From positions 15,879 to 79,878 of IMG/VR virus record IMGVR_UViG_3300020159_002453: a DNA stretch of 64,000 nt; one strand, written 5' to 3'. The translations under genes and the position numbers were made by a program. The notes under the pieces were generated by a model. It saw only the letters and a program-made list of their open reading frames with translations. It was not told where the DNA came from and did no database searches. Each line of letters starts with the position of its first letter. Positions within the stretch are counted from its first letter, which is position 1. The DNA comes from a virus. Positions 61,470 to 64,000 of this stretch are shown piece by piece.

Positions 61470-62138
61470 ATGAAATTAGTGGACACAACTACACAAGTAG
61501 TAGAACCAACTACCCGTACTACCCTTCTCCTTAACCGGAACCATCAAGCGTTCTCGTTTTGTTCTGCACGTGCAGCTATGAGACACTTAATTACCGGGCG
61601 TATTAAAGGTATGGATGCAGACGGCAATATCGTATCATGGGATGGTGCTGATATGGATCAATACCCATCTGTAGAATCATCTCTTTCTTGGTGTGCAAAC
61701 AATGTAGCTTTGTTCGATAATCACCCTTACTTAAGAAGTGCTCCAAATGCAGTTACCGGAGAAGAATCCCGTAGATACATACCTACCATAGCACTATGTA
61801 GCCATCACTTTGGTTTTCATGTAAGACGTGGTGAAACCGTATCTTTAAAGTCTTTATATTCAATATATAAAGGTACTTGTCAGTACTGCTTAAATCCGAT
61901 ACCTTTTAACAGTGCTACCAAGGACCATGTTATCCCTAAATCTAAAGGTGGTACTAACCACGATTTTAATTTAGTTTTAGCGTGTCGTAAATGTAACAAC
62001 GAAAAGGATAACATTTTTCCGTATTTTGACATTGAAGGTAACGAAGTTAAGCCTCGTAAGATGCTCCGTACCGGGGTGTTTGTGCCTGATGCTGACAACG
62101 TTAGAGAAGAATGGAAGCCTTATCTTTACATAGATTAA
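61470..62138 (+). CDS. HNH endonuclease (McrA-like)
   Basis: TLLLN N-terminus, CQYC, DHVIPKSKGG, NLVLACRKCNNEK. Confidence 0.9.
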   Translation: MKLVDTTTQVVEPTTRTTLLLNRNHQAFSFCSARAAMRHLITGRIKGMDADGNIVSWDGADMDQYPSVESSLSWCANNVALFDNHPYLRSAPNAVTGEESRRYIPTIALCSHHFGFHVRRGETVSLKSLYSIYKGTCQYCLNPIPFNSATKDHVIPKSKGGTNHDFNLVLACRKCNNEKDNIFPYFDIEGNEVKPRKMLRTGVFVPDADNVREEWKPYLYID

Positions 62139-62157
62139 AAAATATTAAAAATAAAGC

Positions 62158-62194
62158 TTGTAATTAAGGAAAAATAAGCTACTATGTATAAGTA
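62158..62194 (+). promoter_or_regulatory. Tandem early and late promoters of the tRNA array
   Basis: TTGTAA-N16-TACTAT (62158-62185) followed by TATAAGTA (62187-62194). Confidence 0.65.
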
Positions 62195-62205
62195 TTAATT
62201 AACAA

Positions 62206-62286
62206 ATGTCAATACGCACAATCAGTACCCAATTTAATCCATGCTACTCAACAGTAGCTAAAGGAGAAGATTTGGTTCGGGTTTAA
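62206..62286 (+). CDS. Putative attenuator leader peptide MSIRTISTQFNPCYSTVAKGEDLVRV
   Basis: 26-codon ORF just downstream of the promoters. Its stop codon is inside the antiterminator arm. Confidence 0.6.
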   Translation: MSIRTISTQFNPCYSTVAKGEDLVRV

Positions 62287-62345
62287 AGTCAATTTTCATA
62301 AAAAACTTTAAACCCTAAGACCTAAAAAGCTTAGGGTTTTTTATT
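62279..62345 (+). terminator. Terminator/antiterminator switch upstream of the tRNA array
   Basis: Terminator AAACCCTAAG (62310-19)/CTTAGGGTTT (62330-39) plus T run. Competing 11-bp stem GGGTTTAAAGT (62279-89)/ACTTTAAACCC (62305-15). Confidence 0.75.
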
Positions 62346-62628
62346 ATTTGACATTTTATTTTTGACTTTGGTAAAAGCGTACCAAGAAACGCCTAAAATA
62401 ACCACCACATCCTTTATCGGGTAGTGTTTTGTGGGACCCAATAACAGAAGACATCTATTCTGTGAGGACGAAGTGAATCAATAAGTTAGAGTTCTTTGAG
62501 ACGAGCCCCGGACGTCTTTAAATAAATTGCCGGGCTCATTTAAGGTCTAAGTGTTAGATAAAAACGAAATGCCGACTGCACCTTCGGATGCAGCCAGAAC
62601 ACTGAGCTATCGTTACCTTTCCAATTTT

Positions 62629-62693
62629 TCCTACCTGCACTGAATGTCGGGTTCATCCGTGAAAGCAGCAATGCTTCTAGGTGCATGGTGGGA
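62629..62693 (+). ncRNA. SRP (4.5S) domain IV-like hairpin RNA
   Basis: GTCGGGTTCA-TCCG-TGAAAGCAGC versus the SRP core GUCAGGUCC-GGAA-GGAAGCAGC. Closed by TCCTACC/GGTGGGA. Confidence 0.4.
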
Positions 62694-62703
62694 TGTTAGT
62701 TTT

Positions 62704-62779
62704 GCCCTTGTAGCTCAGTTGGTAGAGCGCTTGCTTTGTAAGCATGATGTCGTCAGTTCAAATCTGTCCGAGGGCTCCA
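62704..62779 (+). tRNA. tRNA-Thr(UGU)
   Basis: Cloverleaf, anticodon loop TTTGTAA, GTTCAAATC T-arm, encoded CCA. Confidence 0.93.
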
Positions 62780-62785
62780 TTTTAA

Positions 62786-62877
62786 GGAAGGGTGGCTGAG
62801 CATGGCTTAAGGCGCTAGTCTTGAAAACTTGAGTTGCCTAAAAACGACCGTGGGTTCGAATCCCACCCCTTCCTCCA
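62786..62877 (+). tRNA. tRNA-Ser(UGA)
   Basis: Anticodon loop CTTGAAA, long variable arm, GTTCGAATC, CCA. Confidence 0.93.
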
Positions 62878-62882
62878 GTTTA

Positions 62883-62972
62883 GGAAATATGGCTGAGTGG
62901 TTTATGGCAAGACTTTGCTAAAGTCTCGGGTCCTAAAAAGCCCCGAAGGTTCGAATCCTTCTATTTCCGCCA
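62883..62972 (+). tRNA. tRNA-Ser(GCU)
   Basis: AGACT-TTGCTAA-AGTCT, long variable arm, CCA. Confidence 0.93.
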
Positions 62973-63118
62973 ATTTGCAAACGCCACGTCATTGGCGAAA
63001 TTGAGGTTGCCTCAAATGACAATTTTAACGGCCTTAAACGTAAACAAAAACGTTATGTTAGAAGCACTGTACACGCTCGACTAACAAAGTGACAGATGGA
63101 GAGACATCACCAATTTTT

Positions 63119-63227
63119 GGGCCGAAACTGATCTTAACACTTACGGGTGTTAATACGTTGAACATTCAACATGACGATAAAGCATGGCTAAGAATGTCGA
63201 TAGGTTTGATTCCTATACGGTCCACTA
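63119..63227 (+). ncRNA. tRNA-like RNA with G3:U70 acceptor stem (tmRNA TLD-like)
   Basis: GGGCCG/CGGTCC-A-CTA acceptor and ATAGG-TTTGATT-CCTAT T-arm. No normal D or anticodon arm. Confidence 0.45.
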
Positions 63228-63233
63228 TTTTAT

Positions 63234-63326
63234 GGGTAAGAGGCTACTATTGGTTGTGTGGCAACGCACTGTAAATGCGTTCTCTTTTGAGTAACACTGG
63301 GGGTTCAATTCCCTCCTTACCCACCA
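63234..63326 (+). tRNA. tRNA-Tyr(GUA)
   Basis: ACGCA-CTGTAAA-TGCGT, variable arm, GTTCAATTC, CCA. Confidence 0.9.
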
Positions 63327-63509
63327 TTTTTTGCATATCGGGACGGCAAGGCGTCAGTGAAAACTCTACCGCATCAGGGTAGCGATTAACGGATAATTAC
63401 AGAAGTAACTAATTTTTTATCTTAGCAAAAATTTTATTCGGTTAACGGTAAAAGTCCGTGTTGTTGTAATCCACTTTACGACGTAGAGGACGGTTTAGTG
63501 AGCCTGAGA

Positions 63510-63554
63510 TGCAGCAAGCGCACTGCAGCAATTATCTGTAGCAAGCGCACTGCA
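63510..63554 (+). repeat. Tandem near-identical hairpins with loop CAAGCGCA
   Basis: TGCAG-CAAGCGCA-CTGCA (63510-27) and TGTAG-CAAGCGCA-CTGCA (63537-54). Confidence 0.85.
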
Positions 63555-63589
63555 TTAATATTGAAGTTCCGACCGAATAATTAATTTAC

Positions 63590-63664
63590 GGACCCGTAGT
63601 GAAACGTATATCACGCAAAGCTACGAACTTTGTATTGAAGGTTAGATTCCTTCCGGGTCCACCA
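63590..63664 (+). tRNA. tRNA-Arg(ACG)
   Basis: CAAAG-CTACGAA-CTTTG, acceptor GGACCCG/CGGGTCC, CCA. Confidence 0.9.
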
Positions 63665-63669
63665 TTTTA

Positions 63670-63745
63670 GGGAGTTTGGTGAAGCAGGTGCTCACGTGCC
63701 GCTGAAGACGGCAAGAATCTGGATCGTTACCAGAAGCTCCCACCA
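63670..63745 (+). tRNA. tRNA-Phe(GAA)
   Basis: TGCCG-CTGAAGA-CGGCA, acceptor GGGAGTT/AGCTCCC, CCA. Atypical T-loop. Confidence 0.85.
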
Positions 63746-63835
63746 TTTTTCAAGTTTCTGAGAGGTGCTGGCCTGACAACCGGCGTGCCGATAATATCAG
63801 TTATTTGACGGGCAGGTAAAAGCCCACTATTTTAT

Positions 63836-63906
63836 CAGTGTGGTAACCGTGTTCAATGAACTCGGTGATATGCAATCTGGGTGAATGTAACCTAGCACAC
63901 TGTCCA
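63836..63906 (+). ncRNA. 71-nt tRNA mimic ending in CCA
   Basis: Perfect 7-bp stem CAGTGTG/CACACTG followed by T-CCA. T-arm-like hairpin and only one other arm. Confidence 0.5.
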
Positions 63907-64000
63907 ATTTATTATATGACAACTGCGGAGATAGTAATTCCAATAAAGTTGTTACTGTATGAGTACATTAGTTATGCTCGTTAATTACTATAGAGCATAG

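Follow-up and report, generated by a model that had tools for sequence, protein, structure and literature searches.

What decides whether a phage transcribes the tRNA genes that it carries, and could that decision be tied to the state of translation in the infected cell? Phage tRNA genes are usually viewed as passively expressed cargo. The locus described here raises the question of whether some phages regulate them instead: directly ahead of a tRNA array, the original prediction had placed a leader-peptide attenuator spanning codons for almost every amino acid, in which a ribosome that reaches the stop codon would bring transcription to an end, while a ribosome held up earlier by depletion of almost any tRNA would permit read-through into the array. 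We addressed this proposal computationally, by dissecting the locus and comparing it with its relatives in other uncultured phages.

Genomic context and relatives

The window, i.e. the whole stretch of DNA analysed (64,000 nucleotides), makes up the final 64 kb of one contig of 79,878 bp (37.6% G+C). Judged by its genes, the source is an uncultured freshwater T4-like phage: a family-B DNA polymerase, a gp46/47-type nuclease, a Clp protease and 7-deazaguanine genes are present, and the sequence is found in freshwater and lake metagenomes. The DNA polymerase shares at most 31% identity with that of any cultured phage. Searching 50,697 phage records with the leader (megablast and blastn) gave zero matches, and the leader region of a relative matched cultured-phage records at tRNAs only.

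In the window, the parts of this locus lie on the plus strand. The leader is followed by a spacer with conserved structured RNAs (62343-62703), which are conserved in relatives as well, and by the first part of the tRNA array (62704-63745), in which ARAGORN and Rfam identify Thr(UGU), Ser(UGA), Ser(GCU), Tyr(GUA), Arg(ACG) and Phe(GAA). The contig stops 255 nt beyond the sixth tRNA and so truncates the array; in relatives, 20-25 tRNAs on the same strand stand behind the leader, with up to 25 for 18 amino acids. On the other side lies an HNH homing-endonuclease gene (61470-62138; Pfam HNH_5/HNH, E = 1e-13), which is the upstream neighbour in most lineages, is homologous in L001-L012 and is no part of the attenuator device. 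Some relatives carry an extra gene of ~1.7 kb between the endonuclease gene and the leader (L003:7372-9129, L012:8835-10620, L001/L002); the leader with its promoters therefore travels with the array and not with the HNH gene.

Relatives were gathered in four ways, namely via a neighbouring protein, via the sequence of the antiterminator hairpin (H1, see below), via a conserved small RNA downstream and via a second such RNA. The H1 search covered viral and metagenome contigs, and both downstream-RNA routes were blind to the leader itself. A 15-base scan pattern, AAACTTTAAACCCTA, was discarded as too unspecific, its 119 matches being mostly due to chance. Together, these routes yielded 23 distinct leader versions from 12 diverged lineages (A to L) of uncultured lake phages. 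The first of the downstream-RNA routes returned leader-bearing loci only, save one chance match and a deletion form in L007. The layout is constant: one or more promoters, an ORF of 23-35 codons, H1, a terminator (T) and structured RNAs precede an array whose first gene is tRNA-Thr(UGU), as holds for every member with sufficient sequence downstream.

Tandem early and late promoters had been claimed for the window, where the matches are weak; at the same places in relatives they are stronger. The putative early, sigma-70-type promoter (62158-62185) has TTGTAA as its -35 element, a 16-nt spacer and TACTAT as its -10 element (8/12 matches), and relatives show TTGACA/TTGACT-16-TACTAT/CATTAT/TATAAT in the same position. 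It is followed by a box resembling T4-type late promoters, TATAAGTA (62187-62194; consensus TATAAATA), which ends 11 nt before the ATG, and lineages E, F, H, I and J have the exact TATAAATA 6-18 nt ahead of their ATG. With the late box so near to the ATG, the late transcript would have little or no 5' leader. From T to the first tRNA, no promoter-like site was found in 8 of 10 loci, the window's interval 62343-62703 among those without one, and the other two loci have weak matches only. Further TATAAATA boxes and sigma-70-like sites occur deeper within the arrays, so that read-through may be needed for the first block alone, and later blocks may, to judge from these motifs, have promoters of their own.

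The leader ORF

The ORF occupies 62206-62286 and consists of 26 codons followed by TAA at 62284-62286. It uses 23 kinds of codon and encodes 18 kinds of amino acid, His and Trp being absent, in agreement with the coordinates and counts originally given. In folding, its start sits in an unpaired, A/U-rich stretch. There is no Shine-Dalgarno site; we rejected this as an objection to translation, since 92 of the 94 long ORFs of the phage likewise go without one (the core occurs in just 2/94 over the whole contig, and starts lie in A/T-rich contexts). The host probably initiates translation without Shine-Dalgarno pairing, though the promoters look sigma-70-like.

Upstream of related arrays, the short ORF is kept while its product changes. 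An ORF of 23-35 codons is found in 12/12 lineages, and frame 0 is free of stops in every version, as compared with a mean of ~1.5 and 2.1 stops in frames 1 and 2. Shuffles that preserve hairpin structure and composition were stop-free in just 13-32% of cases, and the chance of an open frame, taken as a product over 10 lineages, is 1.7e-7. Besides, indels between lineages preserve the frame. The peptide sequence, in turn, drifts almost neutrally: close pairs differ by ~7 synonymous and ~13 non-synonymous changes, and between lineages the peptide can barely be aligned. Pfam and PHROG searches with the leader peptide returned zero family matches.

One contig from a metatranscriptome (RNA) library spans 62235-62483 and thus crosses the terminator; being known as an assembled contig only, it may derive from DNA and is evidence neither of transcription nor of its level, and the parts it leaves uncovered are uninformative.

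Hairpins and the computed switch

Three hairpins follow one another from within the ORF to the end of the leader. The small GCTACT/AGTAGC hairpin that had been noticed in the ORF (62243-62248 and 62253-62258) does exist and turned out to be the tip of a longer, imperfect hairpin, H0 (62225-62278), whose energy of -15.4 kcal/mol compares with -7.5 +/- 2.3 kcal/mol for dinucleotide shuffles (z = -3.4). Every lineage has a hairpin in this place (z = -1.5 to -6.1 against dinucleotide shuffles), where it takes up the distal two-thirds of the ORF. H0 adjoins H1 without overlapping or competing with it, and it may be a pause or timing hairpin.

H1, the putative antiterminator (62279-62315), has a 15-nt loop and a 5' arm, GGGTTTAAAGT (62279-62289), that contains the TAA and is fully complementary to ACTTTAAACCC (62305-62315). 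The predicted intrinsic terminator T (62313-62342) is formed by CCCTAAG (62313-62319) and CTTAGGG (62330-62336), followed by six T residues (62337-62342), and its stem can be extended to AAACCCTAAG / CTTAGGGTTT from 62310 onwards. The stop codon thus lies, precisely where it had been described, inside a perfect 11-nt complement that overlaps the 5' arm of a U-tailed terminator, with CCC (62313-62315) common to both hairpins; the two structures exclude each other. As bare stems in the window, H1 (a perfect 11 bp) amounts to -11.3 kcal/mol and T to -8.4 kcal/mol; across lineages, H1 is at least as stable as T and reaches about -27 kcal/mol outside the window.

This arrangement recurs in the relatives. 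Each lineage has a predicted terminator whose stem of 7-12 bp leads into T5-T7, and H1 and T overlap by 3-5 nt, through CCC in A-G and J and through CCTCT in H, I, K and L. Lineages G, H, I, K and L have other H1 sequences, and at least five compensatory double changes support the hairpin, such as GGTTAAAAATAA / TTATCTTTAACC to GGTCAGAAGTAA / TTACTTCTGACC; compensatory variation is found in T as well (TAAG/CTTA to TAGG/CCTA, among others). Because a MAFFT alignment of the H1-T region set lineage H one column out of register, covariation was taken from folds of the individual sequences. The register between ORF and stem is conserved, too: in every lineage, the stop codon falls within the 5' arm of H1 or precedes it by 2-4 nt, even where the H1 sequence has changed. 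A TAA at position +5 of the arm is found in lineages A, C, E, F and G and in most members of B and D. Lineage H has TAA at +6, lineages I, K and L have TAA or TAG at around +12, parts of B and D have TAG at -2, and J has TGA 4 nt ahead of the arm.

To model the switch, we blocked the bases covered by a ribosome and computed pair probabilities at equilibrium for 11 lineages. With a ribosome at the stop codon, the probability of T was 0.96-0.98 in 11/11 lineages (0.96 in the window), in line with the predicted masking of the antiterminator by a ribosome that has finished the ORF. Free RNA gave a mean T probability of 0.35 over the 11 lineages (0.01 in the window), and a ribosome stalled at codon 8 or codon 15 gave means of 0.32 and 0.30, respectively (0.00 and 0.01 in the window); in the free and stalled states, H1 averaged ~0.7. 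The complementary claim, that a stall further upstream permits read-through, is thus borne out by the computation for the window, and it does not carry over to L205, L143 and L247, where T is favoured at equilibrium even without a ribosome. The switch in these three would therefore have to be kinetic, H1 being transcribed first. A hairpin of the 1:2 type that would sequester H1 was not found, and free RNA retains H1 in the window and most lineages, so that the untranslated state is expected to read through.

Amino acid breadth and codon choice

Leader peptides of the family hold 14-20 kinds of amino acid in 23-35 codons, as compared with ~13-15.8 kinds (SD ~1.4-1.8) under four null models: windows of phage proteins; Met plus codons drawn by phage usage plus the fixed tail; base-composition draws; and shuffles preserving hairpins and composition. 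For the window, 18 kinds in 26 codons correspond to P = 0.003-0.013 over the four models, with the reservation that the window was picked for its amino acid breadth, which the relatives show independently. Combined by Fisher's method, the 12 lineages give P = 6e-10, and 10 lineages represented by their least diverse member give P = 5e-7, both values overstating independence owing to shared ancestry. L050/L134 reach all 20 kinds in 28 codons, L012 does so in 30 codons and L247 has 19 kinds in 25 codons, whereas L143, L255 and L265 show chance-level diversity only. High diversity is hence a trait of the family, and the 'pan-codon' character originally claimed for the leader is a tendency, not a rule. 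We also considered whether the hairpin within the ORF might by itself cause the diversity, its reverse-complementary arms being read as different codons; structure-preserving shuffles yielded just 13.5-15.8 kinds, and this explanation was dismissed.

The composition is flattened, with rare residues enriched and common ones depleted, and runs of codons for one amino acid were found in none of the leader ORFs (12 lineages). Trp and Cys are among the enriched residues. Trp occurs in 11/12 lineages as compared with ~3 expected, the window being the exception; it often takes the form P-x(2-7)-W a few codons ahead of the stop, and its codon often pairs with CCA in H0.

Codon choice sets the leader apart as well. 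As had been proposed, its early part contains a codon for each of the six tRNAs visible downstream: codons 2-16 suffice, which under the codon usage of the phage has a chance of 4.5e-4, and the phage's genes make little use of the matching codons (ACA, TCA, AGT, CGC, among others). Over the family, leaders choose NNA for 59% (77/130) of their four-fold-box codons, where phage genes do so for 29% and gene N-termini for 33% (P = 1e-8), the background being the genes of a single genome, that of the window's phage; the bias is seen in 12/12 lineages. These NNA codons are the Watson-Crick partners of the U34 tRNAs of the arrays (Thr UGU, Ser UGA, Pro UGG, Gly UCC, Val UAC, Ala UGC). Boxes read by G34 tRNAs show no consistent leader preference for the Watson-Crick C-ending codon, so the A-ending bias may in part be a preference for A at the RNA level. 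At the four loci with at least 20 visible tRNAs, 0.74-0.86 of leader codons are decodable by the array, which exceeds the background of 0.62-0.76 only slightly. A comparison of the amino acid sets of leader and array was abandoned as non-discriminating, both covering ~18/20.

As a separate observation, codon usage in the phage's genes and the tRNA set of the array do not match. The genes favour T-ending codons in four-fold boxes (ACT 42%, TCT 33%, GCT 46%), and the first tRNA of the arrays for those boxes has U34, cognate to the A-ending codon, which phage genes use in just 15-41% of cases.

Discussion

Our analysis establishes the anatomy of this element, its conservation and covariation, its unusual composition and codon choice and its computed switch. 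The reading that we favour, with a probability of roughly 0.6, is a ribosome-mediated attenuator that heads a tRNA array and senses overall decoding speed. The comparative evidence speaks for the attenuator at the core of the original prediction; what has to be amended is the analogy with trp, as the geometry is trp-like, yet the 1:2 hairpin is missing and the leader would read through when it is not translated.

We infer that the ORF is translated, that transcription terminates at T, that H0 helps with the timing and that tRNA supply is the signal, and the device might then work as follows. Transcripts from the two promoters in tandem, one early and one late, would start 0-20 nt ahead of an AUG lacking a Shine-Dalgarno site, and a ribosome would translate the 26-codon ORF with its 18 kinds of amino acid, encoded mostly by A-ending codons that are best read by the U34 tRNAs of the array. 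If translation is fast, the ribosome at the UAA would cover the 5' arm of H1 and free the CCC for T, and the polymerase would stop before the array. If the ribosome is slow or stalled within about the first 20 codons, or was never loaded, H1 would form first and take the CCC; T would be blocked, and transcription would continue into the small RNAs and tRNA genes. The result would be negative feedback, with slow decoding leading to more tRNA and restored decoding to shut-off. More specifically, the leader might serve as a gauge of the whole tRNA pool, sampling almost every amino acid once through codons suited to the phage's U34 tRNAs, and might couple decoding speed to transcription of an array of 20-25 genes, both for a homeostatic supply in normal infection and for replacement tRNAs upon depletion of any one species by a host anticodon nuclease or toxin; this refinement is tentative, and we would rate it below an even chance. 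That the array thereby acts in counter-defence against host anticodon nucleases or toxins, as was also suggested, is conjecture.

An attenuator could also respond to something other than tRNA supply, such as ribosome availability and initiation capacity or the arrest of a nascent peptide, e.g. at the conserved Trp, in which case array output would track the general translational state or a metabolite. Read-through in the untranslated state means that the initiation rate alone could decide the outcome, and late-promoter transcripts nearly devoid of a 5' leader fit such a scheme, just as the recurrence of Trp in 11 of 12 lineages where ~3 are expected, often as P-x(2-7)-W near the stop, fits an arrest site. 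Yet the leader of the window has no Trp, the frequent pairing of the Trp codon with a CCA codon in H0 leaves room for an RNA-level reason, and neither a pure initiation sensor nor an arrest peptide hinging on a single residue predicts the amino acid diversity and the NNA bias, so that we regard a different signal as unlikely, if the most plausible of the three alternatives.

The two others dispense with the switch. Promoter, ORF and terminator make up a complete gene, the ORF is clearly selected to stay open, and Trp and Cys are enriched in its product; the locus might hence be an ordinary small gene for a functional peptide of 23-35 residues, with H1 and T as a compound, leaky terminator and the array transcribed by unregulated leak-through. 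Such a gene would be hard to reconcile with a peptide that is barely alignable between lineages, changes mostly non-synonymously between close pairs and has no family match. Besides, a plain terminator needs neither a competing hairpin upstream nor a stop codon held inside that hairpin while its sequence turns over, and the device always stands immediately before a tRNA array, from which no promoter separates it in 8 of 10 loci; we consider this reading improbable. Slightly less probable still is a non-coding structured RNA, in which H0, H1 and T would form either a small RNA or the tRNA precursor's processed 5' leader and the ORF would be a by-product. Three conserved hairpins, of which H0 is significantly stable in every lineage, and a position among other conserved small RNAs would suit it, but an open frame that runs from a conserved ATG to one place in H1 (chance ~1.7e-7) and keeps its phase through indels would not, and the amino acid diversity and third-position bias belong to the reading frame and not to the fold. 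Nor is there a match to an Rfam family.

With the attenuators of amino acid operons (trpL, hisL, pheL, leuL and the multivalent thrL and ilvL), the element shares the short ORF, the terminator and the overlapping antiterminator, as well as the principle that ribosome position picks the hairpin and that a ribosome at the stop leads to termination. It differs in being phage-encoded, in carrying nearly all amino acids once or twice in place of a run of codons for a single one, in targeting a tRNA array and not biosynthetic enzymes, and in lacking a 1:2-type hairpin, so that it would read through when untranslated. T-box riboswitches likewise control genes of translation supply by a choice between terminator and antiterminator that reports tRNA charging. 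T-boxes bind one specific uncharged tRNA directly and require no ORF, whereas the present element, at ~150 nt, has a conserved ORF and neither a T-box motif nor an Rfam match.

Stalling in the bmrCD (PMC4191407) and msrD (PMC10314930) leaders depends on a drug that acts on the ribosome. In antibiotic-responsive attenuators of this kind, including the erm and vmlR types, a slowed leader ribosome likewise relieves an intrinsic terminator and induces genes that aid translation; our element differs in having no known link to a drug and is marked by its breadth of codons and amino acids and its match to its own tRNAs. The toiL uORF of the E. coli topAI-yjhQ operon senses many translation stresses, with stalling at different codons (PMC12121999). 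It resembles the phage leader in that one short ORF serves as a general stress sensor, which in the phage would act through an intrinsic terminator and antiterminator on tRNAs. For toiL, in contrast, Rho-dependent termination reportedly does the work, and the controlled genes are said to be a toxin-antitoxin pair. The nearest parallel on the side of the target is the trn operon of Anabaena, a 26-gene tRNA array that is silent in healthy translation and induced by translational stress, under the control of the repressor TrcR on direct repeats in the promoter (PMC8421152, PMC10272220). Both are long accessory arrays, and induction by impaired translation would be common to them; the Anabaena array differs in its control by TrcR and in being bacterial and not phage-encoded, and a leader, a terminator or attenuation is nowhere mentioned in PMC8421152 (2021).

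A full-text literature search turned up no publication in which a leader peptide controls tRNA genes. If our reading is correct, phages gauge the decoding capacity of their host and dose their own tRNAs accordingly, which would widen the reach of classic attenuation from a single amino acid to almost the full set, and its targets from enzymes to the machinery of translation itself, and would make it testable why and when phages need their tRNAs. At ~190 nt, the switch could be moved into reporters or cell-free systems and might provide synthetic biology with a natural sensor of translation speed.

RNAs within and around the array

An Rfam cmscan of 61500-64000 with E-values up to 1 returned tRNAs and chance-level matches only, with no leader family or T-box. 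In most relatives, the T-run of the terminator continues directly into a conserved structured RNA. Nearly all of them have a pseudoknot-like element between leader and first tRNA, at ~62500-62540 in the window (L051:2640-2680, among others), which consists of a hairpin with the loop GCCCCGGA, then TTTAAA and then a GCCGGGC able to pair with the loop and matches no Rfam family. Directly ahead of tRNA-Thr lies another hairpin RNA (62629-62693, CTGCACTGAATGTCGGGTTCATCCGTGAAAGCAGCAATGCTTCTA), the core of which is identical in distinct viral contigs of higher G+C content (L259, L261, L263, L268-L270), where it follows protein-coding genes and stands without the leader; this distribution suggests a small RNA that is mobile among phages. 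Within the array, two spacers of ~260 nt, 62973-63233 between Ser(GCU) and Tyr and 63327-63589 between Tyr and Arg, contain neither a tRNA nor a long ORF, and relatives lack parts of them or have other sequence there (L003); the spacers probably represent additional small RNAs or what is left of such.

The deletion form mentioned above (L007:8700-8790, on the same contig as L250) joins codons 1-8 of the leader to the T-run and has lost H0, H1 and the T stem. With everything from codon 9 through the T stem gone, the promoter reads directly into the array, and the form may be either an allele with constitutive expression or an error of assembly. Finally, a tRNA-Leu(UAA), often together with a tRNA-Met(CAU), lies upstream of the leader and hence outside the gated block in L205, L231, L237, L130, L247 and L255.
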